A stretch of DNA of 63,919 nucleotides, filler included, from Piptocephalis cylindrospora (taxonomy: Eukaryota), in the NCBI GenBank assembly GCA_003614145.1. It is 3 parts of 3 records of this genome, joined end to end, with 100 filler letters (N's around TTAATTAATTAA, not from the genome) between each part and the next. Parts side by side here need not be neighbours in the genome. Positions count along the whole stretch, not along the records: positions 1 to 22,217 come from KZ987800.1; 2 more parts are not named here. One strand, given 5' to 3'. Positions within the stretch are counted from its first letter, which is position 1; the number at the start of each line of letters is the position of its first letter. Of the stretch, positions 1,370 through 23,535 are shown piece after piece. Under the pieces are notes generated by a model, which saw only the letters and a program-made list of their open reading frames with translations, made no database searches and was not told the DNA's origin. The translations under genes and the position numbers were made by a program.

Positions 1370-1800
1370 AATATCGTCGCTTCCTCTATGGATCTTCTGA
1401 GCGTGAATTCGGATTGTCTATGGTGCCCAGACATCGAGGAAGACCCGGCTTATCGCTTTGCCTATTGTTCTCCAGTGGTGAGCTTATGGATGAGGGTATG
1501 GGAAGCTTTCCAAGGCTCATCTACAATCAGGATGGAAGAAGCACTGTATCAGCTTCAGGGTCTGCAAGGGTTCAGGGGGCATGAACGAATACTTTCTCTA
1601 TGGATGTGCCCTTTGGACAATCCATATAGCGCACACGAGGCTCATCTTCTTCCCGGATCAATCATCCGGCCTCATCCATACGTGGCATTCACTAGTACAT
1701 CGACGCCTGGAGGCCAAGGCTAGGATAGCGCGCCTTCGAGGATCGGAACCAAGGTTCCGGTTCCGTTGGGCGGTGTTGATCCGCTGGACTACTAGACTGA
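1370..1800 (+). mobile_element. Degenerate non-LTR retrotransposon (L1/Tx1-like) ORF2 C-terminal remnant
   Basis: CLWCPDIEEDPAYRFAYCSPVVSLWMRVW resembles the zf-RVT pattern CxxC..EE..H.F..C..V..W with His replaced by Tyr. After a frameshift comes ALWTIHIAHTRLIF, like the LWxIWxxR..IF helix of LINE ORF2 ends. No RT domain is visible. Confidence 0.55.
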
Positions 1801-2766
1801 GCTGCCACCCAGTCTGGGTTCAGCTGAATCTCTGAAAATGTGCTATTTGGGTGCGCGTGATTTTGGTGTTTTTTATGTCTCTATGATGACGAGTAACCGC
1901 CGCATTCCCCTCAGTCCGTGACAAGAGCGTGAATTCGCGTGATCTTTTGGGTGCATTTTCCCCATGAGACAATACATTTTTCAACAATAATGAGTAGTCG
2001 CCTACTGGTAATACATCATATTATTTCCCAATACATTTCGCTGTTTATTACTACTAATACATCATACTTTCTCTCCCTCCATGGATCTTCCGAGTAAACC
2101 CGTTGGGTACCACATTGCCATTGGGCCCTCCCTCTGAAATTTGCCACAAAAGTGAGAGTGGCCCCCATCAAAGATGGGGTTCAAACCCGATTTGGGCTGA
2201 GTATGGGGCTGAATATTTCACTTCCGACACTTGGCCATTGGTCAAGGCCTCAAGTCAATGCTGTATCCCTGCGGCGGAGCGTGAAATATGTTTTTTTCAT
2301 GGAGAGGTTCGCTTCAGGGTCATCCTTGGAGGATAACAAGGAGGATGGGTGAGCCGAGGGATAGGAAAAGTAGAGGACTGGGGGTCGGTGGAGGACAGTC
2401 TTCTCATAGCAAGGGCCGCCAGATATATCATTCTTCCATGCCGGGAAGTAAGGATGAGAAATCGAGGACGTAGCAGCCTAAGTCAAACTCGGAAGCGTGT
2501 AGCTGGAAGGACCACTGGGAGAAGGGAGAACGATGAACGTGGGATAAAGCACATGGTTGTGAATGGGATGAGGTGGCAAGGAGAAATGAGCTTGGATTTT
2601 GGGGTTGGGGTTGGGGTTGGAGTTTGGGAAACGGATCAAGGAAACGGAGACATGGTCGGTCAAAGGAGCACAGGGAACCAGAAAGGTGGAGTACACCATA
2701 GTATTGACAAAGATAAAGTGTGGATCGATACACAGGAAACTCTGACAAAGAAGAAAAGGAAGGATT

Positions 2767-2778
2767 GATATATAAAGA
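2767..2778 (+). promoter_or_regulatory. TATA element GATATATAAAGA upstream of the ricin-like gene
   Basis: About 150 nt before ATG 2927 and followed by a CT-rich leader. An identical 12-mer occurs at 4829-4840. Confidence 0.5.
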
Positions 2779-2926
2779 AAAGCCTAGATCCGTCTTGCTA
2801 CTCTCCCATCCACTTGAGGTTTTTTCCCGGCTTCGCTCCACTTTCTCTTTCTACGCCTCCTTCCACTCTTCTTCACCCTCTCTAACGACCTGTCCATCCT
2901 ACCTCATCCTCCTTAACGATCTTCTC

Positions 2927-3847
2927 ATGTCCTTGTGTACCTTTCTCCCATTCCTTCTCTTCCTACTCTCCTGGATCTGCCTTCAAGCGCACGTCTCAGC
3001 TGCAGCCCTGCCCCCCTCTCCCAACAGCCTCAAGAATCCCGAGGCTCACCAGACATCAAATCATACTACCTTGGTCTCCACCAGTTACCTCCTCTCCCCC
3101 GTGCCACCCAGCCCTGTATACTCTCAGGTTCAGGCCTTTCAGAGTAACAACACGAATGCCACCATATCGGATGGGACGGCCTTTCGACCCGTTATCCTCC
3201 ATGGAAACGGCACCCAGATCATCTCCGCTCCTGGTGCTCAGGGACTCTCCAGCACCTCGGAGGCAAGCGGTATCCCCTTCCATTACACTCGTACATTTGC
3301 CATCCCTCCAAAGTACTTTGGTCTTTGGGGCTCTCCAGAGTGGCATCTCTTTGTGGAGGAGCCTAGTCTTCTCTTTTCCGATCCTACCCTATCAGTCACC
3401 CACAGTCCCTTCTCCTCCCTGCCCACCTCCATCTCCCCCCATGCCTTTAAGCTGATCAAGGTCAAGGAGGATAGTCGACTCCCCTATGACACCTACTTTT
3501 TTGGCCATGATCGATCCGATGGTCGTGTCCTGTGCCTTACCCAAGGATGGCTCTGGACAGGCCTTCGATTTCGTCCTTGTTCCCCCGCGACGAGTCTTCG
3601 AGTACGAGGGGTGGAGCGAAACGAGGCCACAGGCGTCACGCGCATGGTCTTCTTGGACAGTTCTGGCGTGCTTGGAACCGAAAGATGCCTCAAAATCCGG
3701 ACCATACTGGGCCCAAAGGCTCACCTTGAATCCTGTCAGGATGGGGATCCCAAGGAGTTCCTCTCCATTACCGACCCGTCCAATGGAGCCGTCATCGACC
3801 TTGCCTCTCTGAATATGACCATGGTGGGCTCGGAGTTCCCTGCTTGA
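2927..3847 (+). CDS. Secreted protein (306 aa) with a probable ricin-B/beta-trefoil-like C-terminal region
   Basis: Signal peptide MSLCTFLPFLLFLLSWICLQAHVSA, Ser/Pro-rich stalk with NxT sites, and two CL...L..C repeats (LCLTQGWLWTGLRFRPC; RCLKIRTILGPKAHLESC). Confidence 0.65.
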   Translation: MSLCTFLPFLLFLLSWICLQAHVSAAALPPSPNSLKNPEAHQTSNHTTLVSTSYLLSPVPPSPVYSQVQAFQSNNTNATISDGTAFRPVILHGNGTQIISAPGAQGLSSTSEASGIPFHYTRTFAIPPKYFGLWGSPEWHLFVEEPSLLFSDPTLSVTHSPFSSLPTSISPHAFKLIKVKEDSRLPYDTYFFGHDRSDGRVLCLTQGWLWTGLRFRPCSPATSLRVRGVERNEATGVTRMVFLDSSGVLGTERCLKIRTILGPKAHLESCQDGDPKEFLSITDPSNGAVIDLASLNMTMVGSEFPA

Positions 3848-4828
3848 AGCTCTCCTGTATTTATCTTCCTACCATGGGTGATGTGATCCATTGCTTTTTG
3901 TTATGGGAAAGCATTTCCTTTTTTTTCTTCATATCTCATTCTCTTTCATACCTTTTCACAAATTTATCCTGTCATTACTTTGGTTTTCGTCTCTATTTTC
4001 CAGTCTATTCTTAGGGGAAGGGGGGATTCATCTGACCTCGTCAGTGGGAGCACGTTTCTGGACTGTTACACGCAGTGCGGGATGACCTACTGTAGCCATC
4101 GTTGTTCAGTACGACTGCTTGCCGCTCTATGCCACGGAAACACGAGGAGAGAGCTTTCTCTCGGTTAGTCTTTCCCCAATTCTACAGGCTGGATCAGCAT
4201 TATCAACCCTTCCTGATCAATCCTTTCCCACCAGCAATAAGTAGCCCCCCGCCACTTGTTCACATCATTGTCCATCTCTAGGAACAGCATTCACCTCTTG
4301 ATCAGGTCGTGGCAGATCATCAAAAGTGGCATCCTGTCATAGGCCTATGTTCGACTCGTACTCATCCAGACTGCAGATACTTTCTCATGGGCATTTGAGC
4401 AGCCCAATCCCCCATAGCAACTGGCACCCACACGGCATTTACATTCACGTGGGTTTACCCCGCATTCCGTCTCGTCTCCGCTCATAATAGCACTTCTCCT
4501 TCCGTAATGCTTTTATTGGTGCAGGTAGGATGAGTGCGGGGTAGGCGGAGTCTCTGTGACTGGTAAGATCTGCAGCGGAGGCAGGGCGGGAAAGACGGGA
4601 AAGGTCGGATCATCAGCAGCAACGAAAAGGGAAGATGAGTCTGAAAGGGAAAAAGGAGAGGCGGGGTCTGAAAGGAGAGGATGGAAAGTGAGGCCTGAAA
4701 GTGACAAGGGCAGACAAAGCCTGGAGTAGCGGAAGGAACGGAGCATGAACATCCCGGAAGGAGAGAGCCCTCCTCCTTGTCAGTATTCATGGCTCTGAAG
4801 GGCGGAAAGGCTCAGAGAAACCGCATCA

Positions 4829-4840
4829 GATATATAAAGA
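4829..4840 (+). promoter_or_regulatory. TATA element GATATATAAAGA
   Basis: Identical to 2767-2778; lies upstream of ORF 4995-5864. Confidence 0.5.
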
Positions 4841-4994
4841 CTCTGTTCATAGCCCATACCTGCCCTCCTTCCGTACATCCCCCTACCGTCCTCCTGGCTT
4901 CCATCACCATCTGCCTCTCCATTGACCAACCATCACGTTTGACGCCTTACCCCATTTACTCGTTACGCCTTTCATCCCCACTCCTTCCAACGAT

Positions 4995-5864
4995 ATGTCA
5001 CCTCCCTCCACCCTTGTCCCTCCCCTGACCTCCGCCGCTTCCTGGATGGTAGATCCCATGTACGCCACCGTCCTAAAGGTCACCCCCAAGGGTGAATCAT
5101 ACAAGTATTCCATAGTTTCTAAAGCGGAAGGTCCCATTGTTCCACCCACCTACTCCGTTGAGGACCCTAAAGCTAAGGACTATGAGATCCTGGCCGCCAC
5201 TCTTCAAGCCTACCTAGGTAATGCATATGCACAGGGGCTTTTGGCCCCTGAGAGCTCCAAAAATACTCCGGTACATGCCCTGCCCAAGGATCAAAATTCG
5301 CAGTTCCTCGAACTACTCAAAGAGACCCGTCGCTCCTGCATTGCCGTAAATTCGGTCATGCATGGCCAGCACTACGGATCAAGTTACAGTCGTGGGTACA
5401 ACGGACCCAAATTCAGAGAGCCCATTCATCCCGAGGTTGTTCCGACTTCGAATATCCTACATGTGGATCACCTCATTATGCCCCAAATCTGTAATAGGCT
5501 CATTATGTATGCTGATCCCGCTCCATGGATGATCGCTTATGGAACCAAGCTTGCTGGGGACTACCTTGCTACACTTATTAAAAAGTCTTCTGAAGACAAA
5601 AATCTAAAGGAAGCTCCGAAGTACATGAAGAGGCGTCCCAAGGATATAGTGAAAGCTCTTCACTGGTCCAACTCAAAGTTCCTTACCATCCTGATTCGTG
5701 ATTACAAGAAGGGAAAGATCTCTGGTCCTATCACTCGTGAGGTAGCCCAAGAACTTCTTCTTGCTCCTCGTCATGCTCTTCTCAAAAAGGAAAAGGAATC
5801 CACCGCGGTCTTGAGTGCACATGACGCCCTGATCACATCTTTCTTTCCCATCGGGTCCAATTGA
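4995..5864 (+). CDS. Hypothetical protein (289 aa), possibly the body of a secreted gene with a broken N-terminus
   Basis: Long intronless ORF with normal composition. Signal-peptide-like fragments lie upstream in two frames (see findings). Confidence 0.6.
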   Translation: MSPPSTLVPPLTSAASWMVDPMYATVLKVTPKGESYKYSIVSKAEGPIVPPTYSVEDPKAKDYEILAATLQAYLGNAYAQGLLAPESSKNTPVHALPKDQNSQFLELLKETRRSCIAVNSVMHGQHYGSSYSRGYNGPKFREPIHPEVVPTSNILHVDHLIMPQICNRLIMYADPAPWMIAYGTKLAGDYLATLIKKSSEDKNLKEAPKYMKRRPKDIVKALHWSNSKFLTILIRDYKKGKISGPITREVAQELLLAPRHALLKKEKESTAVLSAHDALITSFFPIGSN

Positions 5865-6667
5865 AATGACCATTTTTTCAGTATACATCTTGACCTAAAT
5901 ATAAATCACATTTTTCCCAATTCAATTGTCATTCTTATGCAGTGTTGCTATGCTCTGTGATTCTTGCTGATGATCAAAGCAGCTGTCATCAGAGAGTGAC
6001 CTATGTTTGTATTCATCTTGTCTTTGTCAATGGTCCTCCCAGCAAATCTCATCGACAATGTTGCTTCGGCACGATGGATCACCCTTTTCTCTTCCTTCAC
6101 CCGGTGGTAGAGTGGCCCATTCAAATGAAAAGGTATAGGTAGAAATGTGAGAGCCTTGATCTCCTCATGCCTCTCTTTCTCTCACACTGCCTCGAAACGG
6201 CCCGCTTTAAAGCCGACCCGCCCCCATCCGTCCCTACTCACTTGTAATCTCCGCTCCTTACCCTATATCCAATGACGGGTCTGCTACAAGTCTCTCGGCA
6301 CCAAAGCCCCTATTCCATCTCCGATTCACCGTGGATCAATAGGGATCGCGCGACAAGTCCGGTTGACACGTTCTTTTCCCTAGCTCTGGACGAGTCTATA
6401 TTGGCCTATCCCTCTCCCCTCGCCTGTTCCCTTGGACGGCTCTCCTCACCTTCTTTCCCCCCTTTCTTTCTTCCCATCCTCCCTTCGTACTTTAAATCAC
6501 CTCCTCTTCCTCTTCCTCTTCCTCTTCCCCTCGCCTATCCTCCTACCCATCCTTGTCTCCACTTGTCACCTATCAAGCTATCTACTTTGCCCCTTTCTCT
6601 TTAATCATCCTCGTAAATCCCCGTAATCGTCTTATTTCCCCATCTTGGATCCCTTCCATCCCGCTAA

Positions 6668-8326
6668 ATGCGCTCTGCCTTTTCCTTGGCAATGCTCGTC
6701 CAGGCGACGATCCTTGCCCTGTCCCTGCTCATCAGCCCTTCCCTTGGGTACATGTCCTTTAAGGTTCGGAATAAAGTCATCACGGCCCACACCTATGACT
6801 TTTTCCAGGTCAAGTATGACTATTATGACCGTCCCAATGGGATCGTCGCGTTCATGAACCCCTCCAACACCGTCGCAGACCGGTGCTTCTTCCAGGAGGC
6901 CAAATACAATGATACCGTCGTTGCTCAGGGCGGGATCAAGAATGAATCGGGTGAGTTTTACGAGCACACTGTCATCCTCCTCAACCCCGCCGCGGGTGCG
7001 GCTGTCGGGTGTCTCACCATCACTCAAATGTCCATTGCGGCCGTCAAGTACGGGAAAAGCCTAGAAGCCGTCGGGTATCCCCCGGCCTCTACCCTCATCC
7101 TCGCTTCAAACTTTTACGGTGTCGGGTACCCAGGAGGTCCGCTCTCCGAGTTCTACCCTTCCAGCAATCCCAGGGTTTCTGATGGCCCCCCAGCCATGCC
7201 CACAGCCTTTATTAGCTATGAGGATTCCTTAAAACTCGTCGGTCTCGTCCAGAGATACATCCCTGCTGAGGTGTCTCAGGAACGGGGCCCTTGGAACGAT
7301 GCCTTCCTCGATCAAGGCTACGTTGCCTACAACTGGGCCCTCTTTGCCTTTAATGTACTCATGTGCGTCTATGGTCTCTACCGCTTCGTGTCCCTCCTGC
7401 GGTTTGGATCCATCAAGGCCGATATCCGTACCTCGGTCTTTGTTCTCGGCGTCATCTCCACTATTGTTGGCGCTTGCACCTTCCCCATGATGGTCATGAC
7501 CTTAAAGTACCGTGTCCTCATCCAGGTATCCAGCGCCATTCACAACATCTCCTTCTACCTCCTTCTCCTTCTGTGGTCTGGTGTCCTGTCACGCGTCCAG
7601 ATCGACCGATCCTTTGCCCCCTTCCGGATCATGATCTACGGGGCCATTGCCTCAGCCATCGTCATGCTCATCATTGGTATTGCCCGTTATACTTCTCAGG
7701 GCGCCCCCTGGACCAATCGCGCCTTCCGAGTAGTTACATATCTAATCCCCTCGGTCGAGGCTTTGGCCGCCCTCCTTTTCCTCGCCTACTCGGTGCGCTT
7801 TGCTGTCCGGATGAATGAGTATAGTGTAACCCGCGATGTTCGTCGTGCTCTCTCCAGACTCACCAAGCTCTCTGTCATTGGCTTTGTCTCCTTTGTCATT
7901 CTGGCCGTAACCAACATCCTCAGCAATGATTGGGGCTCCTTGGGTAGTGTCACCACCACCATGGCCCTTTATATTTCTCAAAACATTGCCATGACTCTTC
8001 GGTCCGCCGGAATCATCTACATCCTCAACATCGCCATCCCCACCGATACCACCTCTGGGTCCTCTTCGGGCACCTCCTCAGGTAAAAAGGCTGGGTCTTC
8101 GGGATGGGTGGCCTTTTCTCGTGGCTGGCGTCGTGCTCTCTTCGGCACCACCTCCCAATCTTCTAGCTGCGACTCCACAGGGAATCGCCAGCATCACTTC
8201 AACAGCTCTTACAGCGGTGGAGAGTCCTGTGCTACCCCAAAGACGGGTCAGAGGAGCCACTGGCATTTGGAGTCCGGCTCAGTGGATTCTCAGGAGAAGA
8301 GTCACTTGACTCGATCCCAGGCCTGA
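6668..8326 (+). CDS. Signal peptide + extracellular (PA-like) domain + 7-transmembrane receptor-like protein, 552 aa
   Basis: Hydrophobic N-terminus, ~190 aa ectodomain ending PTAFISYEDSLKL...GPWN, seven hydrophobic segments, Ser/Gly-rich tail. Intronless. Confidence 0.85.
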   Translation: MRSAFSLAMLVQATILALSLLISPSLGYMSFKVRNKVITAHTYDFFQVKYDYYDRPNGIVAFMNPSNTVADRCFFQEAKYNDTVVAQGGIKNESGEFYEHTVILLNPAAGAAVGCLTITQMSIAAVKYGKSLEAVGYPPASTLILASNFYGVGYPGGPLSEFYPSSNPRVSDGPPAMPTAFISYEDSLKLVGLVQRYIPAEVSQERGPWNDAFLDQGYVAYNWALFAFNVLMCVYGLYRFVSLLRFGSIKADIRTSVFVLGVISTIVGACTFPMMVMTLKYRVLIQVSSAIHNISFYLLLLLWSGVLSRVQIDRSFAPFRIMIYGAIASAIVMLIIGIARYTSQGAPWTNRAFRVVTYLIPSVEALAALLFLAYSVRFAVRMNEYSVTRDVRRALSRLTKLSVIGFVSFVILAVTNILSNDWGSLGSVTTTMALYISQNIAMTLRSAGIIYILNIAIPTDTTSGSSSGTSSGKKAGSSGWVAFSRGWRRALFGTTSQSSSCDSTGNRQHHFNSSYSGGESCATPKTGQRSHWHLESGSVDSQEKSHLTRSQA

Positions 8327-8869
8327 GTCGATGATTAGGGAACATGAGTGTAGGTGTGTGTGTCATGAAATGCTGAGGATCCTTTCTGTTCACTTCCTTT
8401 CTCGGCAGGATGATACAGCTTGGTTTCAAGTGATCATACTAGCTCTAGTGGTTCGAGTAGTCTATATGCATAAGAACCAGGGGTGAGTGAGGATGAATGG
8501 AGTGTGGTGAATGAACTCTTGGAGATATCCGGGTGATTGTCTATCATGCTACGTGTTCGATCATCACTTCAGAGTTAACAGGACTTGGGAATGGACCCTG
8601 TAGACTTGAGACCTGTGGTCTGTACTCTCCACTATCCCCATGAAGAGGGCGGATACATTAGGAACGGGAAGGACACATAGAGTGTCAGTAGTTTCTCACA
8701 CAATTAATCAAACAATGGACGGGAACTCGGTCTAGAGGGGATCGGGTCACTCAGCCAGCCTCGATCTTTCCATAGCCTCCCTTCCTTCCAATGTAGTCAT
8801 TTTGGCGGCGTTTATCTTACAATGATATCAGCGAAAGAGTGTCGATCGGTTATAAGAAGACAAGATGAG

Positions 8870-10121
8870 ATGCGTACTTTCCTCAAAGTATCCTTACTCC
8901 CCTTACAACGATCCTCTCCCCCTCTCCCCCTTCTCCTTCCTACTCTAACCATACATCCCAACACGATATCCGAACCAACGAAACGCACTTGGCTCCGTCG
9001 TCGTCAGTCAGCTCCTCAGGGAAATGAGCCCGTAGATGATCTTGCTGTACCAGGCTCTCCCTCCATGGCCATGTCCGAGCTCATGCCGTTGGCCGCGCAA
9101 AATTATGCTGTCAAGGAAGTGACTGCACGGTCCAATGTCATCCTGGGTCAAGGAGGGGCCATTATCGTGACTCGAAAATTTCAAAAAGATCAAGCTATAG
9201 TCAGTGGCTCCAAGCCTCCTCCGGCATGTCCCGCTAGGCTACTCACCCTTCCCCTCCTATCTTTTTTTCCACAGGGTTGGGAGAAGACCAGAATTTTTAC
9301 CATTGCCGATGTGGATGGGGAGCAATTTGGATGGCTCATTGAGGATAATAATCCGTCATTTAATGTCGCCATGGGCCTTCAGCTTCTCAAAATCCATCGT
9401 CCCTTTAAGGCCCGTGTAGAGGGTATGGACGGTAATGTCGTACTTCGAGTAAGTGCTCTTTAAGGCTGCTGTCGTCGACTTAGGAAAAGGGTGGCTACTT
9501 ACTCATAGAAACCCCTTCTCCTCTCCCTCTCAGATTATTCGGCCATTCACTTGGGTGAATAGTATCATATACGTGGATAACATGGAAGGGCAGAGGATAG
9601 GATCCGTTCAAAGCAAGTTTCATGCCTGGAAACGTTCCTATGACTTGTACATTGGGTAAGTTCACGACGCTCCCTACTGGATGAGGCAAGGTGCTTTGTC
9701 TCGCACTCACCCTAACCTTGGCCCCCTGAGCAGAAAGGACCGCTTCTCCAAGATTCGTGGAGGGGCCTTGGCATGGGATTTTTCCCTGCAGAATCGTGAG
9801 GGTCAATTGATCGGACATATTGGATGTTCCTTTCGTGGCATTACTCGAGAGGTATGTGCCATCTGGATTCTAAAATAAGTAGCATGTGTCATTTGTCATT
9901 GCATATCTTTCCCATCATGAAAGCTCATTCTAAGACCCACGAACCCTCTTATCTAGGCACTTATGGACACGGGAAGATACATCCTGGAGATGGAAAGTGT
10001 TCAAGACCCGGAAACTGCCCGTTTTTACCCCCTTACTATATCCGAGCGTGCCGGCATGCTAGCCACCGCAATTTGCATTGACTTTGAATATTTTTCCCTC
10101 AGTCTGGCTACTTATGGGTAA
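8870..10121 (+). CDS. AIM25: Phospholipid scramblase family protein (AIM25-like), about 5 exons
   Basis: Spliced segments GWEKTRIFTI, QLLKIHRPF, IIRPFTWVNS, IGSVQSKFHAWKRSYDL, LAWDFSL, DTGRYIL and ERAGMLATAICIDFEYFS, separated by GT-AG introns. Start codon and last bases are uncertain. Confidence 0.85.
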
Positions 10122-11579
10122 GTATTCTCCTAGTCTAGGGGGCAAATGACCTGTTTCGTGGTATGTGGGTGCGGTATCATGGGCCTGACCGTCAGTAGCT
10201 TGAAGATGCGATGGGCACAGAGTGAGATTCTATGCTCGTTGAAATGAAAGTGAGATGATTTTAAATCAACTTTGTCCTACTCTTCACGATTAGTGTGTGG
10301 GAAAAGGGTTTTAGTCATGGATACATAATGGAAACGACGCTTTTAAATACTTTAGATCAAGTAAAGTGGGTCTCTCTAACTAACTAGTTGCAATAGTCAT
10401 CCCTTCCTCATCTCCATCGTCTTAGTAACCTTAGTGCATATCCCGGTCTCTTGTGATGATGAAGTCATTATATCTCATCCTAGTGGGATAAGCAAGAGGA
10501 TCCGAACACACTACTTACGCTGAAGCTGGTATGCGCGATACCAGGGGCTAAGGCTTTCGACGCGTACCCTACCAGTTAGTTTTTACGGATACTACAGAAG
10601 CCTCTGGCTCACTCCAAGGGATTATAGCTGGGCCATCCAACTGTTAGGCGCTGGAAGGGGTCTAGAGTGTGCCGCCCTCCAACTGCTCGGCAAGATGCTG
10701 GGGGATATTGAGGGCAGCGCCATTGGGATCCTTAAACCTGACCTAGCGCAAGGAGAGGGTGACCAAAAGCCAGAGCGTTGTAGAGCTTGAATTTGGGGCC
10801 ATTTGATGCCGTTCCAGGATCTAACAACACTACTGACACTATTGACACTACTGGGCTAGTTAGTTAGAAGACTCCAGCCCTTGGCCTCTACTACAGCTCC
10901 CGTCTCACATTCACAGTGAAATAATGTATATTGGCCCCATACTTTCTGCCAATCAACACATGATCTAAAGCAGCGATAACTGGCTGCTCAACTCCGCTGC
11001 TCACTTGGTCAGCGACCTCCATTCCAAAACAGGAATATAAGGATGTGCCCACTTTAGTGACCAATTAGGATGCGACCATCCAGTCGGCTAAATCCCTCTC
11101 CAGAGAGGAACCTATCACCACTACTATCAGCCTCTATTCTGACTAGATTGGGGGTTTTCATGGGAATTCCTCCTCCCTATTCACGTCAAGCCTACCGATA
11201 TGAACAAAAGCTGCTGATGATCAGTTTATCTTTCGTATCTTCCTCTCTTTCCCCTCTCTCTTCCACATTGCTCAAAACCCTCTCCCTCTTGCCCGGTGCA
11301 ACATCTCGCTTTCTTTCGCCCTCGTCGTGTCCTCATCGCCCTTCCTCCTCTTCCTTCCTAAATTCACTCAGCCGCCCGGAGCGTCTTCCCTCGCCCACTT
11401 CTCTTTTCCCCTTTCCCCTCTCTCTTCATTGGCCCTCGCGCTCATCAAATCATCCCTCGCCACCACCTCCTCCGCCTTTTTCCTTTCCACGCCCTGTCCC
11501 TTGCCCTAGAGCAATCACCCGCTCACATTTTTCTCACTCTCGCTTCTCCCGACATCCCTCCCCATATCTTCTCACCACC

Positions 11580-14500
11580 ATGAGACCATCCATGCTTATC
11601 ACATATGCCAGCATTCTAATCTTGGCCGCCCTACATGAAAGTTACAATGCAATGCCTAGTAAGTTTCGGACTGGCTTCCACGAGTTCCACATGCAGCTGC
11701 AATGAAATGTATCCGCAAGCATAGATTTAGACTTACAGATACACCTTTTCTATTTGATGTAGTTGGGGTCAATTCCCGTACGGCCCTATATGCATCTCCG
11801 ATCGTATCATCGTCTTCCACCGTAAGGGTAAACAGTAAGTTGTGATGAAGAGGGTGGTTGCTCATCAAGCATCGTGGATGGGGGAAGAGAGAAAAAGAAA
11901 TTCTCTCATATGGAATGGGTGACCCATCCCATCTATTGATGAGGGCATTACAGTCTGATCTGTTTGTGTAAACAGTCGTTTGGCTAAAGTCACTCATATC
12001 GACCTCCACTCAACCCATCCTACCATCTTGCATGTTGCTTCCAAAAAAAATCACTTTTTATATGACCTCACATAGCTGCAACGGTATGTCTCGAGTGTTT
12101 CTTTGCGCTTCGATGGCAATGGCGCAAATCGTCACTTTATAGCTCATGCGCCCCTTTCTTCTATCCCTTTTTTTAGAAACTCGGTAGTAATCCTTTAGGT
12201 ATGTATAATTTGACGATCGGCTCATTCCCTTCCCCTCCTCGAATTTTTGTATTTATTATTACACGCTTCTCATTACTCTTCATCTATCACCAAACTCTTC
12301 TTACCCATTCTAGCCGCGCAAAAGGCTCTTCAGAAAGTTCAAGGGAGGAACAATGGTGGGGAAGCTCCACAGCCTGTCAAGGTAAACTACTATTTCAGGC
12401 CCTTTCTTAATGGATGGCCATGGAGTGTGAGCAATGCTCCTCCCCAAACAAGATGACCAATCTATATCCCTGTTGCATTGGGAGAACTCTTGTTTCTACT
12501 CATAGCATCTACACTCTGATGCATATGCTCACCATTCCTTCCTATCTGTATTGCCTCCATGAGTAGAAAGCTAAAGCGTCAATAACTCCTAACGAAAGAT
12601 CAGCGGTTGCTTTAAATCAAAAGAAACCGGTGGCCTCTCTTAACGAAGAGCCCGCTCTCACCCCTAAGCAGCAGGTAAGGAGTATCCAGAAGACACAGGG
12701 CATGATGCAAAAACATTCTCTCTCAATCTTTGTCAAGTCCATGTGTGACACCTATTCTTCTCCTCGCTCACCATCCCTTCAATGGTGTATCTATTAGGCC
12801 GAGGTGAATCAGGTTCAAAGTGTAGGTTATCTATCCATTGGTTTTTGACGAACAGTTTCTTGCCCATCAACTCATTCAGTTTCCTCTCCTTTCCTCACTA
12901 TTTCTTTTTTTCTTAGTCCTACAAAAACCTCGAAGGTATCCTTGAATCATTGCAGGTAAGTGCTGTATCATGGGGAAGGCCTTTTGCTTCTTGTTGCGCT
13001 TCTAATTCTCGTGAGGTTCGTTTCTCTTTATCATTAAATCTCTGTATCATCTGTTGGTGTTGGTTAGAGAGTCGATAAGCAAAGCGGCATGATAACAACC
13101 AAGAGCGGCGCCCAGATGCCGGTAAGCTTGTTTTTCTTTGAGGGAAAGGAAAAGTACATGCTATCCCCTCATCTCTCCTCCCACCCTTTTCTCATCATCT
13201 ACACCAGGCCCTACAGGGAGATTCCTATGCTGTCACCGTGAGTTAGATGTAACTGGGAGTACTGGGATATTATACTCTGCCCCACTCTTTGCCATAGATA
13301 GCCTAGTGCTGAATCCTCTGCTAAAAATCCTTCCCATTTCTTGACTCCTAGAATTTCCGTCAGGTTTGGGATAATGTAGTATCCTTGCAGGAACGCGGTA
13401 TTTACTCCAAGGTAGGCTTAAACTCTATCATCTTTTCTCCGCAGGGGCTTCTAAAGGATGTAGAGGCTTTTAGTGAATCAAAGATAGCCCCCGATCGGCT
13501 AGAGAAGGTATTACATGAATATTCAGATCGTCTAACGCGCCCTTTCTATTATTTTAGGAGCTTGACGGCGTTACTGCTCAGCTGGAGATGTTTCCTACCC
13601 GAATGTCCATGATCAAGGTATGAGGTTCATGGAGAGAAGTGTAGCTTTCACATTGAAATGAGAGTGAGGAAAGGATCTCTCTTATCATAGGGTCTTGAGA
13701 GCTTTTTACCTCCGTCATTCTATTGATCTCTTTTATTCTGAGCTTACTTAATTATCTCATAACGTGATAGTCTGGAAAGCCTGCAAATTCCCCTTCCTTG
13801 TCCAATACTGTTCGTGCAGATGAGGTAAGAGTGCAGCATTAAACTTCCCGAACCAATTGGCTGAGGAGGCATCTTGTCTATGTTAATGAGCTAGGTGGAG
13901 GTTGATCCACCTAGTTTACGATCCTTTACACACGTGACTTCTCTTTTTAACATATACACTTCTCATATCCCATTAGCTCCGCAAGCCTGAGTTCGTCAAG
14001 GGTGAGGTAAACCGACTTGAAATGGTAAATAGCTTTTCGTGGACGATATGCGGATGACCAAGATTGAGTAGACAAAGTTCAATGACTTACCTTACCTTGG
14101 GACATCATTAACTTGCGTAGGAAATGGATGATATGATCAATCGCGCCAAGTTCCAATTGGTAAGTCATGGACGGCATGCATCCTGGGCTTTTCGTTTCTT
14201 ACAGTGGGTATATACTACTCGGGAATGATAATGATTACTGAGGACGCATCGTGGAGTGCTTTACTTTTAATGCCAAATTCTCATCACCCTCTTTTGGCTC
14301 ACATCTCTTTAGGCCTTTCGTAGAGAATTTAGCGAGGTAAGTACCTTGTAGTGAAGGATGAAGTGTTACTACATTCATAACCCCTACTTGAAACCAATTT
14401 CTCCGGCTATGCCTTGGATGTGTAGGATTCCTCCAGCGATGTATATTTCTACAAATGGGTAAGTAAAAAATACTCCATGTATTATTGTCACTGAAAGCCT

Positions 14501-15060
14501 TTAACACCAGATTTCCTCCTTTTCTGATCCTAGCAAAACGATCTGGTGTTGAATGATGTCAAGCAACTCTCCAAGGTCTTTCCTGTCAAGACTGTCAGTA
14601 TAATTTTTTCCTTTGATTTTTTGCGTAATTAGAGGCACTAAAAGGCGCCTGGAACCCTAAAGGCAACAAAATATGCATTGGTACTCGACTCACCCATCCT
14701 ACCTGCCCTTTATATCCTCGGACTGCTTATCTCGTATCCCAATAGAGGTTCCAACAAGCTTATGAAGATAAGCTGCAGGCCTTTGACAATTGGCTTACCA
14801 ATCCTACCGACGTCGGAGGCAAGGTGAAGCCCTTTCAAGCCCCTACCTTTGACCGTGCCAAGGTAGGTGCTGCCTATGATGGGTTGGGGTGTTCAATCAT
14901 GTGAATGCCATAAAGTGCGCTGGCTCGAGATAGGATGGATTCTGTGTTTACAGGGGCCTTGCACAGAAATCCTAGCCCCTTACTAAATTTGTATGATACG
15001 GGCTAATTACTTTTCCTACAGGCTGAAACTGAACTGGACCAAATCCTTTCCAAGCCCTAG
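11580..15060 (+). CDS. Micro-exon-type secreted protein A (about 339 aa, 20 exons)
   Basis: Exons: 11580-11658, 11763-11834, 12076-12083, 12177-12198, 12314-12381, 12567-12674, 12798-12821, 12917-12955, 13068-13121, 13208-13237, 13352-13411, 13558-13617, 13771-13824, 13977-14006, 14121-14159, 14313-14336, 14426-14458, 14534-14593, 14746-14862, 15022-15060. All introns are GT-AG and the exons join into one stop-free ORF starting with signal peptide MRPSMLITYASILILAALHESYNA. Confidence 0.82.
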
Positions 15061-17902
15061 AAGCCTAGCTTTTTGTAAGTTTACGCTGATGCTCTGTAAA
15101 TCTTTTGATGGTGATGTACTTTCGGCAATGGCCATGCCATACTTCCCCAGCGCTCAACAACACCCTCTGTTTTTGGTTCCCTTGGTGGTTTAAGGTTAGG
15201 TGGTTACCTACTCTGACCTATATAGGATAGGGTGGAGATAAAGCGCATGCGCTATCTATTTTGAATGCAGGATGATATCACTGTGATATCTATTGCCGCG
15301 AGCCCTTGCCTTTACGGGAGATTACAGTCAACACTTTTCTAGAACCGGGATGGCCTTTTCCTTCCTTTTCCCTAAGGATATTTTTGCTCTATGAAACTGA
15401 AATAGAACCATACTCGTGTTTCCTGAATGTACATCCTTCCCCATCTTGGCACCCATTTTTAGCCATTCTTTTCAGGTGGATCCTCAAATATTTACTCTAG
15501 AAAAATGCACCATTTCTGATCCTTCTATTACTTGATGAATGGTCTTGATTTGATGGAATAAAGTCGGTACAAATTGAATGGCTATCTAAAAGAATAGCAT
15601 ATTCTCGTGATGGTGTCCGGCGCTGTCAAACAGCACTACAAGCGTCGAATGCAATGATTGCCACTTTGAATCTGAGTACCTTAACCAACCAGCCATTTAT
15701 TTGGTTAATACAGCTCTGTTGTGCACAGATACAATCGTATCGTCCTAAGTGAGTATTATGCTGATTTGAGATGAATTTGTGTAGCTGAAAAGCCCCTGAT
15801 AAGATGCATATAGCCAACATTATTGAATTTCCCTTTAGGCGTTAGGCATAATACTGACTGTGGGGCCATCGACTCGATAGGAGCCAAGGTCCACTGGAAT
15901 TTTCGTCTTCCTAATAATACACCAGAGTAGACATGTAAAAGGAGAAATAGGCAGGAGAGACCTTTATTCCACAGCCGTAACCTCTCTTCACACCAACACA
16001 CACACCACCTATCCCAGAGTTTGGTATCAGTCTAGTACCGGTCTCCATAGGGGCGACCAAAGGTCATCACGCTGATAATCATTTACATTGATGGCGGGTA
16101 TTTATGATTTTGACATATAGGGTGTTGCCAGTGACTCTGAATAGGGACGGATGATGGTGGGCAAGGGTACACGGAACGTCTCGGATTAGAGATACATAAA
16201 AGGGGAGAATGAGTGAAAGGGAAGGAATACGGCCTTAGCTGGGTGAACGCTGCTCTTCTTGACTCAATACACACATCAGAATAGTGCGATCCTATGGGTC
16301 CGAACATTGATTATAGTCTTACTGAGAGTATTTGATTCGCTAACTATTCACCTTGGACTCTCGTCTGGATTGGACTTGGGCCAGCCTTTCGACATTGGGC
16401 GCTTGGGGGTATATCTACTTTTTTCTTGGGTGTTGTTGAGCGCGTCTAAGGGGTGATACATCACGTTTTTCATCTAGACTGTATACCCTTCCTTCCTCTC
16501 TTCCCCAATCAAACTTTAGGGTCTGCTCCATTCCCACACCTTGACTAGATGAGTAAGCCTTGACTCCGCATTTAACATACCCTGAATGGGTGAATGGGCA
16601 GGCTGGATCATACTCAGCGCATACTTGGTTCACCTCGCCCTTTCTGCAATATTCGTCAGGATTAGATGTTCAGCTGGTGTCTCCGCCTGTTTTATGTCTC
16701 TCCAGCTGCTGCTACCGCAGGGTTTGGACCTAGCCAACCAGGTTGGGCGAGTCAATTCAAGCTATAATAATTACACTAAGGAGACCCAGAAGCGCCAAGC
16801 AACTGTTTGGCCCCATGTCATCTTGTAGAACATTACACCAGACTTTAAAGGAAAGGGATTCAGTTATATGCATTGCACCTCCAAGGTATGAAGTTCACTT
16901 CATTCTGCGTACGCATTGTTTCCCTTTTTAAAGGTAGTGTTAAGCATCTAAAGACAATGCATTCTATCAGACAGCAAGTTATGACTAGCCAATCACACTA
17001 ATAGGTCACATGGGCTAGAGGTACCATCAGAGGTCACAGACGTGTATAATTTTCAACCGCTACGCGCTACTCTGCCTTCACACCTGTCAGTGTTTAACTC
17101 CGCTCGTATACGGGGCCACAATGTTACGGGAAATCAGATAGACTTTGATTTATCCCTTCTCATACTCTGAGTAAATGGGCGGACTTTGATTCCGTTTAGC
17201 AGTACTTATTCAACTCCGATGGTTCAAGGTGCGCTCGAGTAGCTCCACCGCACCATTCATTTATTCACACTGCTCGTTTGAGCATCCTCTCACCGCCATT
17301 CTATGAGTGGGAATATATGTCTATCATTTCTAGCTAGCGTATAAAGGCTGTAGTACCACTCCAACCGACTACTTTCTATCCCTTTTTCTCTCCTTCTCCC
17401 CTTTTCTCCCTTCTCCCCTCTTCTCCCTTTCCTTCTCTCTCTCCCACTCTTCCCTTCCCTTCCTCTCTCTCTAAAAAGCCAAGACTGCCTGGCGCAGCCA
17501 TTCCCTGCTTTCCATTTTTCAATCTTCTCTCTCTCTCCTTCTCTTGCGTCCGTTGCGCTCCCACTCCCAATCTCATTTTCTCTGGGACAAGTTGATCTCC
17601 AATCCAATCATCTTCCCTTCACTCTCCCTTTCTCCCCCTCGCTCCTTCTCTTCACCTTCCTTTTCTCACCTTCCCCTCCTCTCCCTCTATACACTTCGTT
17701 CTCGCTCCTTCCCTTTTCTTCTCCCTGGCTACAAACACGAGTTGACCTCTTGTTCATCGCCAACCTATTCCATCATCCTTCCACCCGTTCCTCTCCCACG
17801 CTCAAGTCTTTGAAATCCCTCTTTCACAACTCACTTCGATTCCGTGTCCCCCCCCCGCCTTCTTTGTCCTTTCTTTCACTTTCGACAAATCAGCCCATCT
17901 CC

Positions 17903-20900
17903 ATGAAACTTTTTTCATTTCTCCTTACTGCTGCTTTCCTTGGTCTCGTCATTGACCATGGAGTGGACGCAGCCCCACCTGGCAGAACTGGTAGGTTTCT
18001 TACTTTGCTTGCTGCTATCCCGTCCCTGGTTACGGCCTTTCATGAGTACGGTTGGATTACAGCTGGCTAACGATCCTTTTATTACACTAGTACTGTTTAC
18101 ATCACCCCCACGTGGTTCAGTGATCAAATCGCCTCGTAGTTCTGAAGCAAGTTCCACAAATTATAACAGAGGTATGCAGATGAGAGGGTACGGGCAGGCT
18201 TTTGATGGATTATTTGATCCTTCATAGTCGTGCTAACCACCCATCTCCTTCTTACCTATATTTTCTATGCCTTCATCATTTTATTCTTTTACCGTTGTAC
18301 AGCGCCTGAAATTGTAAGTGGATTTCTTTAATTCCTTTTTTTCCCTTACAGGAAAAATTTCCTTCCTCCAACCATTACCATACACTCATTGTCTTATCAC
18401 CTTATTGTCGCGTCACTCGATCAACCAGCAACCTGTTGTCCTTCGTAAGTATGACTGAGAGCCATACCCCTGAAATAGAAGGTGTTCGTAATACTCCATG
18501 GTTTACGGTCACGGTCTGTAATGACAATGCATCCTATATAGATAATCAGCGCAACTCCAGGACCGTAAATGGAGAGCACTCATCCGAGAGCCCCAACGTA
18601 AGGATTCTATGCTTTCTTTGAAACGGAGGTGCCAGAGAAAAGTCTCTTTCATAGGTCGTCAGCTCATTATCGTATTCATCCACCTACCACTCTTTTAACC
18701 TATTAACCATGGCTGGGTGGGATTTTTATGGTATTACTATTAGGGCGCATCGATCAGGAAATCGTCCAGTAAAGTCGTTGGCGTCGGTCACACTGGTACA
18801 ACGACCACTACCGTTAAGGTATAGCAAAGAGAGTGGAGATGTAAACTCTCTTGAGACACTCGCAATTATTTCAACTGACTAACTCTTCGAATCGTCCTTG
18901 GACAGAGTGCTTCTTTGAAAGAAACGGAAAAGGTAAGGATCAAGTAAATTAGAACCGGAGCGATTGTCCCTATGGAAAGCTCAGTTCGGGATCCTCTAAG
19001 ATGGATTATAGCGCTAAAAAAAAAGGGACTCACGCTATTGAGCATTATCTAGGTCCTTGAAACGTTGGAGGGCTGGTTTGTTCATTACAAGGTAGGCCAT
19101 TATATATATTTACTTCGGGTCTCTAAATACGGATACTTTATGGCAAAAAGCACTAAAAACTATTATTCCTTACAATCAGAGTCTTCCGAGGGAAACTAGG
19201 ATGGTATGAGTACTGCGTAACTGGCTACTGCATCAAAAATCAGCTATTTCTGTTGAAATGCGCCTACTAAGTTCGCTGGTGTTTATCTATTTGGGCTTTT
19301 TTACTAGGCACATTACGCTACAATCCTAAAGGCAACCGATAAGGTAAGCATGATCTATGGGGTAGAGGAAAATCAAATTTTAAACGCTAGGCTGAACCTA
19401 TCTACTTTGTTTATATTATGATGTCATACCTCACCTATGTCATCATCACTAAAACTTTTCCATATCCATTTATAGTATACCTTTGAGGCGTGGAAATCTC
19501 TTTCTAAATCTTCCAATGCGGAAATTCCAGATAATGTAAGTGCCATTGAGTTGATTATTTTTTCGTTCTACCCTGAAATACCCCTTATTCGCGTGGTGGC
19601 TGCATGAATGCAAATTTTTTGCCTTCCCCTACTGATTCTTAGCATTAACCGTTACTTTTAAATTATGCTCAGGAATTAAGCACGTTAAAGGCCAGAATGA
19701 TCGATGCCGAATGGAAGGCCACCATTATCAGGGTAAGTTGTCGATTGAATGTGCGGTTGTGGTATTAGAGAACAGTAGGAAATTATCCTTGGGATATCTG
19801 GATAATGCCTTTTGAGTTCTTCGGGCCTTCTCTAGTCGATTTTAATCTTGCTTGCGTACACTTTCCTCGTCGAGGTCGAAAAAATAATCTTTTCTTATCC
19901 CTTCTTTATTAATTCTTTGCCCTTTTTGTAGTCTGAGATGCACGATCCAAATTCGATTAGATCGAGGTGGCTCGAGGCTCCAAGTGATAAGGATGTAAGA
20001 TAAGCGAGTGGGATGTTTCTTTTTACAAACCCATAGGATTTATGGACGGGTTTAGATGGGCATTTATTTTCCTTGATGGCTAGTCATCGAGAAATAATCC
20101 GCCATTTAGCACAACTCTTTGTGACTCTCTGTGGTGAATAAAGGCCCATGTGGGTAGGAGTTCGTTAACCCCTCAATCTCCTCCTTTTTAGCTAGAATAC
20201 CCTGTTGTTGCTCGTACAGAAATAAGCCGCATTGAGGGGGTAAGATCAATCTTTATCGCGAGCGTTTTAGTGAATGGATTGGTTGCATATTTCTCATCTC
20301 TTTCCCTTTTATATGTACTCCTTCCGTTTCTTTGCTGCCACGCGTATCCACATATTCTGCTATCTTTAGGATATCAAATCAATCCCGGGTGACTTTCTGC
20401 ATAATTCTGATGTAAGGTTTCGTCAGTATTTGCACGCGCTTGTTCTAACGTGAAATCATCTAATTTGCGGATTTGTAACTCATACTGACTTTTCACATAT
20501 ATACTTCCTTTATCCCAATCATAGAAAATATTCACACCAGAAGATGTATGTTATTCAGGTTACGAGTTCAGCCTGTTTTCTCTTAGTTTCCTTTCTAAAT
20601 AATCATCTCTCTACTTTCATCGGGGTAAATTCAGGTTCCATACATCTACAGCTATCTGGAATGGGTAAGATTTTGCTTTTTCTTGAGGAGAAAGGAAAAT
20701 TGAAGCGTTATATGCACTGATTTGTTCTTCTTGAAAATATGCCTTGTGCACTTATTCTAGAGAACGAAACAGGTATCGAGTGACATTCAACGTTTCGGAA
20801 GAGCCACGGCTAACGATGAGGCCGCGCAAATGGTACGTGTTATTATTGGTTGATAAGCGCCGTTATAGGACGCTTGATAAACAACCAAATTAATTGTCTC

Positions 20901-22160
20901 TCGATGCCACATTCATTGATTTCAATCTGACATTTTCTACCGTTCCCAACTTCTTTCTTTCCTATTGAATTATATTTCTGCAATAGTGGGTAAAGAAATG
21001 GAATACTGATCTGAATCAGTGGGAATTTTGGTTTAGTCGCCTTAAGCAGGGTCAAATGGGTCAACAGCCAAAAATTCCTTCCTTGGATATGCCTATCCGT
21101 AGTGGATCGTCTGAATTGGAAGCACCTTCTACATCAAAGGTACGTGACCATGTGAAAGTGCCTGTCCTAGTCGCTAAATATCCCTATGGTAACTCATTGT
21201 GGTACACTCTTTTTCGCTCATTTTCCTCCTTTCCCTCGCCATTATTTTGACTTTTGTTTCAAAATAAACCCCTGCGTTCTCGATAAAGGTAAGAGTTGAG
21301 ATGATGGGAGCGAGGGAAAATGGCGAAGAGGATGAGAGGATATAACATAAAAGTGATCTTTTTTACTTGTGCCTGAACTCACCATTAAATTATCTTGCTC
21401 ATTTAGCTTTTGAATGATTTCCGAGAAAGAGCTGATCGCTTAAACGTAAGTTCATCATGGACGGGAACTGGAGGCTAGCACATCTAAGCGTGTTTTGGAT
21501 TTAAATAACAATTTCCACTTCCTTTTGCCGCATGACGCCTTCTGCTCTCCCCGCAACTTCGGGCATCTTGATATTTTGTGCTGCAGGATAACCCTGAAGC
21601 TGCTTCCAAGGTTTGTACTAATTTCTGGACTTTGATTGGATTTTCTTCACATGGGCGTACTCTGAATATCTTATGGCCTCTAACCTGTGATCATCTTGAC
21701 TACATAGGATACGAAGGATCAACTTATCAAAGTAGTTTTTTTTATTGATCGGTAAAGGAAACAAGTAGGGTATAATATGTTAAACTAAACAGTACGGCCC
21801 CCTATTATCTATTTAGGAAATTGATGGATTCCGTAAAATTTCCACTGAGTATCTTTTGACCAAAGGCCTCTCAGCCAGCCCTGTAAGTTACCGAATGTCT
21901 TGTGACTTTAGCTTTTTGTTTGGCAACTTCTATAATGTGCTGGTGCTGGTTGGATGATTCCCCATCTACCTTCATTGCACCTGGTAGGAGATATTGCATC
22001 ATGATCTATACGAAGCGTAGTTGATGGCTTTCGTATCCGACTCATCCTTCTTAACTCCTTCCATTTACTCTTGACTTATCTCTGTCTCTCGCATATTATG
22101 CACTCTCTCGATTGGGGCAGGAAATTCAGGGCACTGTTGCTAAAGTTATCCGGGATTTGA
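17903..22160 (+). CDS. Micro-exon-type secreted protein B (about 407 aa, about 25 exons), paralog of A
   Basis: Exons: 17903-17990, 18091-18171, 18303-18313, 18429-18444, 18542-18597, 18744-18818, 18906-18932, 19053-19091, 19180-19203, 19308-19343, 19476-19535, 19673-19732, 19932-19994, 20192-20239, 20370-20411, 20525-20545, 20635-20664, 20761-20832, 20987-21139, 21407-21445, 21587-21610, 21708-21731, 21817-21882, 21988-22016, 22121-22160. Signal peptide MKLFSFLLTAAFLGLVIDHGVDA. The 3' end is ambiguous (stop at 22020, 22160 or 22189). Confidence 0.82.
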
Positions 22161-22217
22161 ATGGCATAAAGATCGATGGTCAGTGGTGATAAATAAGCCT
22201 CTAGGATCCAAAAGTAT

Positions 22218-22317
22218 NNNNNNNNNNNNNNNNNNNNNNNNNNNNNNNNNNNNNNNNNNNNTTAATTAATTAANNNNNNNNNNNNNNNNNNNNNNNNNNN
22301 NNNNNNNNNNNNNNNNN
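22218..22317. other. Assembly gap with artificial six-frame-stop linker
   Basis: 44 N + TTAATTAATTAA + 44 N. Confidence 0.97.
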
Positions 22318-23535
22318 CCCTGAAACTGGCGGGTCGACAAAAACTCCTCCACGAGCAGCTCCGGGCGATGGACCCAAGTATTGCATGTCTCCAAGAGGTG
22401 GACAATCTGAATAGCTGGATGGCCCTGTTTCGCGAGCTCCAATACGTTTATCTGTACTGCCAACACCCGTTGAAGCAGCATGGGTGCTGTATCATCTACA
22501 AGAAAAATCTATTTGACCTGTCTGGATACACTGAGGTTGACCTGGATGAAGAGGGATCCCTGGAGGGCTCGGATAGTCCCCCAGCGTCGGGATTTACCAA
22601 AACCATGGCGCAGGTCATAGCCCTTCGATGGAAGGAGCGACCGGAGCAAGGACTGGTCATTAGCAACCATCATCTTTTCTGGCCTCCGTTGGCCGCTTAT
22701 GAAAAGCTGAGGCAAACATGTGTCATCCTGGAAAAATGTGTTTCCATTGGTAGTTTGCGCCAATGGCCCATTCTAATGTGTGGAGGTAGGAAATACGGAT
22801 AAGTGTTTCGATCTGTACTGGATGAGAATAGGGCTTACTCAACTTCTTCAATTACCCTTGTACGAATAGATTTCAACTCGACCCCCAGATAGCGCAGTCT
22901 ACAGCTCCATGACTGGATCCCCTGTGGGAGAGGATGGACGGAAGGAGCTTGATATTATTCCAAAGTACTATTTCCCTCAAGGTAAGCACGCTAGTGAAAG
23001 TACTGCATCATTAGAACGAGAGGGGGTCCAACTAGAAAGCCTTTTGTATTTTCCCTACTCTTCCCGCTAATGTTGCATACCAACTACCTTCCTGGTAATG
23101 ATAAATTACTGGGGGATATTAGAAGGAGAGGATAGAGAGGCATTAATGGATGAGGAGGATAAGAAGAAGCTGAAACTCATTTCTCCCCAAGCCCTGTTGG
23201 ATCGAATGGCCTCCTTGCCCCGGGCGACTTCGGCGTACGGACGGTACGTGGAGATGGACCCAGCAGCTAGCAATGACTGGTCAGTGTCTGGAGAGCCTCG
23301 GTGGACCAATTATACCGAATGGAAGGGTACCTTAGATTACATATTCCAGGTAGAAAACGAAAATGCCAAATCCCTTGTACTTGAAAGTGTCCTTCAACTC
23401 CCCACGGAGGACATTATGCGCCCTGGACTTCCGAATGATCAGTGGGGTAGTGATCATTTATGTTTGATGGCACGGTATGCCATGGACGATGAAAATGGGC
23501 AGCGAGGGGGAGAAGAGGATGTAAATGGGGTATAA
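22318..23535 (+). CDS. CCR4/nocturnin/Angel (NGL-like) EEP-family nuclease, 5' truncated by the gap, one apparent frameshift
   Basis: Motifs IACLQEVD, HGCCIIYK, NHHLFW, spliced CGDFNSTP, TLDYIF and LPNDQWGSDHLCL. Confidence 0.88.

Follow-up and report, generated by a model that had tools for sequence, protein, structure and literature searches.

Two neighbouring micro-exon genes of Piptocephalis cylindrospora as diverged paralogues, probably built from a repeated three-helix module

The bicycle genes of aphids encode secreted putative parasite effectors in about 17 small exons of nearly uniform phase; their sequences have diverged past recognition while intron positions were kept, and a module is repeated one to four times per protein (PMC9168663). 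Bicycle genes number in the hundreds, their exons are of phase 2 and carry CYC motifs (PMC9168663), and their folds are reported to be saposin-like (PMC13041983). The micro-exon genes (MEGs) of schistosomes likewise encode secreted proteins of a parasite and have 10–20 short exons that are mostly multiples of 3 nt, with a prevailing exon length of 15 nt and introns of up to 5 kb, whereas several of the studied products are disordered and alternatively spliced (10.1101/2023.06.21.545858). At the protein level, AvrM of flax rust and the WY effectors of oomycetes, which target plants, are degenerate tandem helical bundles whose repeats are not significantly homologous in sequence, the residues conserved being mainly buried hydrophobic ones (PMC4617103). 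We describe two genes, A and B, of Piptocephalis cylindrospora that lie in a 63,919-nt stretch of DNA, filler included, joined from three records of assembly GCA_003614145.1 (hereafter, the window), and for which these systems are the closest analogues: A and B resemble bicycle genes and partly MEGs in gene design and AvrM/WY in predicted protein design, and would appear to be members of none. The family Piptocephalidaceae parasitises fungi (PMC6899921), and mycoparasites of the Zoopagales form haustoria, mostly on Mucoromycota (PMC10386755).

Genes A and B are neighbours in the same orientation (Table 1), and their reading frames assemble without internal stops. GT-AG borders were found for all 19 introns of A and all 23 of B, and the 42 introns span 75–267 nt (mean ~130 nt). 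The median internal exon measures 51 nt in A and 40.5 nt in B; 16 of the 18 internal exons of A and 21 of the 22 of B do not exceed 81 nt, and 6 and 9 of them, respectively, do not exceed 36 nt. In both genes the intron phases run 1,1,0,1 and are 0 throughout thereafter, with the non-zero phases of A confined to the linker-coding exons 2–6, and all core exons are multiples of 3 nt with phase 0-0. Phase 0 is thus found in 15/15 core introns of A and 19/19 of B vs 16/45 introns in the remainder of the window (for B, Fisher p 6e-7), the latter count coming from rough automatic models of 25 other regions, some imperfect and one probably spurious, in which the genes are ordinary and have 0–5 introns. 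With 20 and 24 exons, A and B have the many small exons of bicycle genes, which however are of phase 2; they also share with MEGs the exons of at most 81 nt in multiples of 3, while the MEG pattern of 15-nt exons and kilobase-long introns is absent.

Table 1. Coordinates in the window of genes A and B, their predicted parts and the repeat between them
Feature	Position	Strand	Description	Source
Gene A	11580..15060	+	20 coding exons, 345 aa, Piptocephalis cylindrospora	blind gene finder, public model P0001, best alignment of homologue P0003/P0004
Gene A exons 1-10	11580-11658, 11763-11834, 12076-12083, 12177-12198, 12314-12381, 12567-12674, 12798-12821, 12917-12955, 13068-13121, 13208-13237	+
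Gene A exons 11-20	13352-13411, 13558-13617, 13771-13824, 13977-14024, 14121-14159, 14313-14336, 14426-14458, 14534-14593, 14746-14862, 15022-15060	+
A exon 1	11580..11658	+	predicted signal peptide: hydrophobic N-terminal window (Kyte-Doolittle, KD, 2.3), nothing hydrophobic later
A exons 2-6	11763..12674	+	basic S/T/P-rich linker, predicted disordered; coil with predicted local distance difference test score (pLDDT) < 35 in the corresponding region of the two models
A module 1 (exons 7-12)	12798..13617	+	predicted three-helix bundle; homologue model residues 138-226 match as single unit
A exon 13	13771..13824	+	Pro/Ser-rich inter-module linker
A module 2 (exons 14-19)	13977..14862	+	predicted three-helix bundle and linker; homologue model residues 240-335; 48-nt exon 14 backed by homologue
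A exon 20	15022..15060	+	39 nt including stop; predicted terminal helix, likely stub of third module; as long as B exon 20 and as A exons 8 and 15
Dispersed repeat (~200 bp)	15860..16076	.	high-copy, unclassified mobile element between A and B; numerous divergent contigs whose ends are loose, at depths reaching ~21,000
Gene B	17903..22189	+	24 coding exons, 407 aa, Piptocephalis cylindrospora	blind gene finder, public model P0002
Gene B exons 1-12	17903-17990, 18091-18171, 18303-18313, 18429-18444, 18542-18597, 18744-18818, 18906-18932, 19053-19091, 19180-19203, 19308-19343, 19476-19535, 19673-19732	+
Gene B exons 13-24	19932-19994, 20192-20239, 20370-20411, 20525-20545, 20635-20664, 20761-20832, 20987-21139, 21407-21445, 21587-21610, 21708-21731, 21817-21882, 22121-22189	+
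B exons 1-6	17903..18818	+	signal peptide followed by disordered S/T/P-rich linker, both predicted
B module 1 (exons 7-12) and linker exon 13	18906..19994	+
B module 2 (exons 14-19)	20192..21139	+	predicted three-helix bundle and linker; model residues 205-310 match as single unit
B module 3 (exons 20-24)	21407..22189	+	extra predicted three-helix bundle absent from A; model residues 320-396

A protein search with one exon per gene led to the public models P0001 (A) and P0002 (B), both P. cylindrospora hypothetical proteins, which contain verbatim 16 of the 20 exon peptides of A and 22 of the 24 of B. A gene finder blind to homology recovered 18–19 of 20 and 22 of 24 exons, respectively, with splice matrices trained on the same A and B sites that were tested; matrices cross-trained between the genes separated true sites from background with an area under the curve (AUC) of 0.98 for donors and 0.87–0.91 for acceptors. 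Two DNA contigs (X2 and X3) have no differing letter within the coding exons that they cover. The exon junctions come from gene models; no run recorded as RNA contains A or B, and no spliced read or contig covers the junctions. Three sequencing runs marked "RNA?" yielded unspliced, adapter-ended pieces only, and since these leave a neighbouring intron-containing gene uncovered, they are uninformative on expression.

When 1.84 billion representatives were searched sensitively with P0001, one relative came up, P0003 (E 6e-5), which is identical to the C-terminal 213 aa of the Piptocephalis tieghemiana protein P0004. The P0004 record follows the full exon chain of A over the core and ends at the same place. 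Because P0004 scores 201 against our model of A and 153 against P0001, our exon chain was preferred. P0001 contains an additional 63-nt exon in intron 11 and a 30-nt exon 14 in place of the 48-nt exon modelled here, and each of these variants was rejected, as it lowers the score against P0004 from 201 to 177. The additional exon (13445–13507) is in frame, within a stretch (13352–13507) that is open throughout, and is absent from the homologue; it may represent an exon used alternatively or one that has decayed. In-frame alternative splice sites were seen at exons 10, 11 and 14 of A. A consensus donor also lies at 15075, 14 nt past the stop codon of A, and may mark an intron of the 3' untranslated region, and a strong donor at 21289 in the longest intron of B, after a pyrimidine tract without a usable AG, possibly belongs to a lost exon.

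The exons of A and B correspond one to one. The lengths of exons 1–19 are strongly correlated (Spearman 0.92), exons 8, 11, 12 and 14 have the same length in both genes, and every length difference among the core exons is a multiple of 3, including those of exon 9 (54 nt in A vs 24 nt in B) and exon 19 (117 vs 153 nt). The phase string is identical across 18 introns. For the phase-0 exons 6–19 the permutation p of the length match is ~1e-5, and nothing positive is left of the correlation when the pairing is shifted by 1–3 exons. Anchored identity is 28/202 (~14%); the ungapped exon-anchored score over exons 7–19 equals 28 vs −110 ± 27 in within-exon shuffles, none of 5000 reaching 28 (z 5.1), and z is still 3.7 and 3.4 after the exon-edge residues are trimmed. 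Pairings shifted by one or two exons in either direction yield p 0.16–0.87, the true pairing beats random pairings with p 0.0001–0.002, and gapped shuffle tests give p 0.002–0.034. P0004, cut at borders projected from A and anchored against B, gives p 0.003, 0.014 and 0.18 in three anchorings. AlphaFold models were run separately, for P0004 with P0001 as alignment and for P0002 alone; in exon register, with B exon 9 omitted because P0002 lacks it, their helix/loop strings agree at 87% (Matthews correlation coefficient 0.67), which none of 234 circular shifts equals.

Several results weigh against homology. BLASTP of the two public models gives E >= 0.17, hhalign assigns the pair a probability of 0.25%, ordinary local alignment of B with P0004 has z ~0, and the predicted folds are of low confidence, with mean pLDDT of 39.8 (P0004 model) and 44.5 (P0002 model). 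These failures, the low anchored identity and the modelling of junctions from DNA without RNA junctions are what an explanation by non-homology could draw on, according to which A and B would be secreted helical proteins without common origin, matched by chance, by generic amphipathic helices and by the hand-picking of exons. We consider this very unlikely, since public models and the blind finder give nearly identical exons, the length match vanishes on shift, the same phases recur over 18 introns, the helix layouts predicted for the two are in agreement, and the genes lie side by side in one orientation. We therefore hold with high confidence that A and B are homologous, as supported by gene structure despite the failure of standard tools, and deeply diverged tandem paralogues are the best explanation of the pair. 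A first-pass annotation of this DNA had proposed exon-by-exon homology; its quoted peptides all lie where it placed them, and the exon lengths, phases and anchored scores (z 3.4–5.1) bear the proposal out. It had given the range 12917..21139, which falls short of our models, A starting at 11580 and B ending at 22189. It had also named a non-significant alignment with dissimilar folds as evidence against itself; of these two, standard alignments are indeed non-significant, but the helix layouts of the predicted folds agree.

Each protein is predicted, at low confidence, to start with a signal peptide, called from the hydrophobicity of the N-terminus rather than by a signal-peptide program, and to continue with a disordered S/T/P-rich linker of ~90–110 aa. 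There is no Cys in A, B or P0004, in contrast to the CYC motifs of bicycle proteins, and neither A nor B contains a transmembrane or GPI (glycosylphosphatidylinositol)-like segment, an RxLR motif or an N-glycosylation sequon. No Pfam family matches P0001, P0002 or P0004 at E <= 10, no PDB sequence matches better than E 0.14, and Rfam, Foldseek and ESM Atlas searches returned nothing significant. The first-pass description of helical, Cys-free proteins of no known family thus agrees with the Cys count, with the helices of the low-confidence models and with the lack of a match in Pfam, PDB sequences, fold searches and the Atlas.

The helical region is probably a tandem array of ~85-residue three-helix modules that share a characteristic exon pattern; A would have two such modules and B three. 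This reading rests on the exon-length windows, on the same cut points in both models and on the similarity of B module 2 to other modules. In B, the exon lengths of the three modules are 39/24/36/60/60, 42/21/30/72/(153) and 39/24/24/66/69 nt, and an unguided search for three similar 4-exon windows picked those starting at exons 8, 15 and 20, with 4 of 1500 permutations as good (p 0.003). When searched against structures, each model divided into distinct three-helix units, and the division followed the same exon groups in the two (P0004 138–226 and 240–335; B 205–310 and 320–396). When exon-anchored, B module 2 is similar to the first module of A, of B and of the homologue (z 3.2–4.0), three projected P0004 borders having been adjusted by hand for the cross-module anchoring. 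Module 3 is the best-modelled part of B (pLDDT 57–81 per 10-residue block), and the final 39-nt exon of A stands where it starts in B.

On the other side, the best pair of 4-exon windows in A, likewise at exons 8 and 15, has p 0.61 alone; 12 of 15 cross-module pairs are not significant when exon-anchored and 3 are; cross-module local alignment yields nothing significant, profile tests are weak (best p 0.03–0.05), and B module 3 has no sequence signal versus the other modules. The best structure Z scores, 10.3 and 9.6, are below the ~13 bar that the tool sets for helical bundles. By eye, A exon 7 (AEVNQVQS) echoes the end of A exon 14 (GEVNRLEM), and an LEAPS..K motif ends B exons 13 and 19. 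Hydrophobic residues occupy exon positions 2, 5, 9 and 12 in 11, 14, 13 and 10 of 16 hand-picked exons, and among unselected exons a helical register at exon starts has p ~0.02 pooled and 0.12 per gene; a shared register is therefore suggestive only. Two parts of the first-pass view are revised. Exons had been read as single amphipathic helices; only 2/16 borders in B and 2/13 in the homologue touch a predicted loop vs 30% of all positions, so that in the models the borders interrupt predicted helices, and an exon does not correspond to one helix. Tandem three-helix modules are also most likely to take the place of the one helical domain proposed there.

The matches listed for each piece are generic three-helix bundles (spectrin, plakin, BAG, SPX, designed bundles). 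Bundles of the spectrin-repeat, BAG and GAT-like types resemble the A and B modules with Z 8–10 and rmsd (root-mean-square deviation) 2–3.5 A over 75–95 residues; spectrin and plakin repeats (Z 8.1–10.1) are tied with unrelated bundles, and by the tool's own scale this range denotes a common arrangement. In contrast to spectrin, A and B have no Pfam spectrin match and their modules are split by Pro/Ser-rich linkers. The 50 matches listed, all generic bundles obtained with low-confidence models, include no WY, AvrM, saposin or HsbA fold, an absence that rules out none of these. A and B are similar in size to AvrM and WY proteins, and their predicted tandem bundles would stand behind a secretion signal and keep mainly hydrophobic positions as in those effectors; however, A and B have no sequence or Pfam match to them and no RxLR, the AvrM repeat is a 68-aa four-helix bundle (PMC4617103) vs the predicted long three-helix module of A and B, and the host of the organism carrying A and B is a fungus rather than a plant. 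The module number would vary as in bicycle proteins, while the predicted three-helix bundles differ from a saposin-like fold, and the predicted folded core differs from the disordered MEG products.

The core of A is identical to P0004 at 64/242 positions (26%), vs 336/368 and 134/151 (~90%) for two housekeeping proteins of the window and their P. tieghemiana counterparts; eight intronless window proteins were looked up, six of them were in the collection and two had a P. tieghemiana member. Fast sequence change, as the first-pass annotation had suggested, is supported by these figures. Either A and B evolve very rapidly or P0004 represents another paralogue, and each of these would fit a family with rapid turnover. 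Two points tell against this picture: P0004 may be a paralogue rather than an orthologue, which would weaken the rate comparison, and only three full-length members are known, in contrast to the hundreds of bicycle genes. A word search with B found B alone among 1383 candidates, and would miss relatives near 30% identity; tblastn found no additional paralogue in the window (best E 0.66), and no exon chain was found between A and B. A metagenome match, L001, was rejected as a bacterial plasmid-like contig matched by a single short peptide. Over its positions 1–18952 this contig is AT-rich and by eye carries ParA-like, topoisomerase-like, DNA methylase-like and toxin-antitoxin-like genes; the match is by chance and the contig unrelated.

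We lean slightly towards A and B being secreted, Cys-free stalk-plus-bundle proteins that act as effectors of the mycoparasite and bind host proteins, a reading supported by a divergence much faster than that of housekeeping genes. In each predicted protein, two (A) or three (B) three-helix bundles would follow a disordered stalk; the protein would be secreted at the haustorial interface and would bind host proteins through variable bundle surfaces laid over a conserved hydrophobic core. Single-phase exons would let the genes gain whole modules (as in B), alter loop lengths (exons 9 and 19) and slide splice sites in frame, and such exon-driven changes of modules and lengths would run over evolutionary time without frameshifts. 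The same secreted helical-repeat paralogues could instead have a non-effector role, as a surface or attachment protein of the spore or appressorium, or as an apolipoprotein-like carrier of host lipids. Long amphipathic helices (mean hydrophobic moment 0.31–0.33 vs 0.28 in shuffles), the lack of a catalytic motif or family, and a layout of stalk plus repeats, which adhesins likewise show, are compatible with this. We regard it as unlikely, given that the excess of amphipathicity is small (1–2 standard deviations), that A and B have no GPI-like tail, Cys or N-glycosylation sequon, and that fast divergence better matches host conflict than nutrient transport.

The exon structure also allows a mechanism like that of MEGs, in which combinatorial skipping of symmetric exons would turn each gene into many secreted isoforms. 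Every core exon, being of phase 0-0, is removable in frame, alternative in-frame sites exist in A (exons 10, 11 and 14 and the 63-nt candidate), and schistosome MEGs operate so (10.1101/2023.06.21.545858). However, exon borders lie in predicted helices, and one skip would remove 10–24 residues from a bundle; skipping is disfavoured because it would cut helices. Moreover, donor sites are strong (AUC 0.98) and the homologue record keeps the full exon chain over the core, so that we judge MEG-like skipping quite improbable and prefer the reading in which the exons serve module and length changes over evolutionary time.

Several other features lie around these genes. The dispersed repeat between A and B has no second copy elsewhere in the window and is flanked by perfect 16-bp inverted arms (15150–15165 and 16428–16443, 1.26 kb apart); an opposite-strand joint is seen there in one DNA run, the left arm differs from the window in two runs, and the joint is either an amplification/assembly chimera or a small inversion. 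GC content around A and B is 39–49% per kb vs ~50% for most of the window. Upstream of A there are three intronless orphan genes, 2927–3847 (+), 4995–5864 (+) and 6668–8326 (+), predicted to be secreted, soluble, and multi-pass membrane with an N-terminal signal, respectively; they have no significant Pfam match and are singletons at 90% identity. Two tandem tiny paralogues at ~38600–38792 (−) and ~40120–40319 (−) encode Cys-rich, hydrophobic proteins of 63 and 66 aa, whose N-terminal Met-Gly-Cys start suggests lipid anchoring. N runs with TTAATTAA filler occupy 22218–22318 and 44409–44508; B ends ~30 bp before the first of them, and therefore further family members may lie in unassembled sequence.

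For Piptocephalis and related mycoparasites, no papers on either effectors or micro-exon genes were found in a search whose coverage excludes most subscription journals and all supplements; in its accessible parts, a 2026 study on the effectors of mycoparasites names Piptocephalis a single time, as a dataset that was retained (PMC13188720). Tentatively, A and B may be the first members seen of a larger, sequence-invisible Zoopagales effector family. Effector genes with single-phase micro-exons would also have arisen independently a third time, following the MEGs of schistosomes and the bicycle genes of aphids and in this case with phase 0, and their in-frame cassettes would allow modules to be duplicated, trimmed and possibly skipped to suit different fungal hosts; we think this reading doubtful as it stands. 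The gene-structure signature, namely a signal-peptide exon, phases 1,1,0,1 and then phase-0 cassettes of 39 / 21–24 / 24–36 / 60–72 / 60+ nt, offers a means of finding such genes where BLAST fails. It would open to testing the way in which one fungus, a biotroph, manipulates another, and the reason why parasites across kingdoms converge on single-phase micro-exon effector genes.

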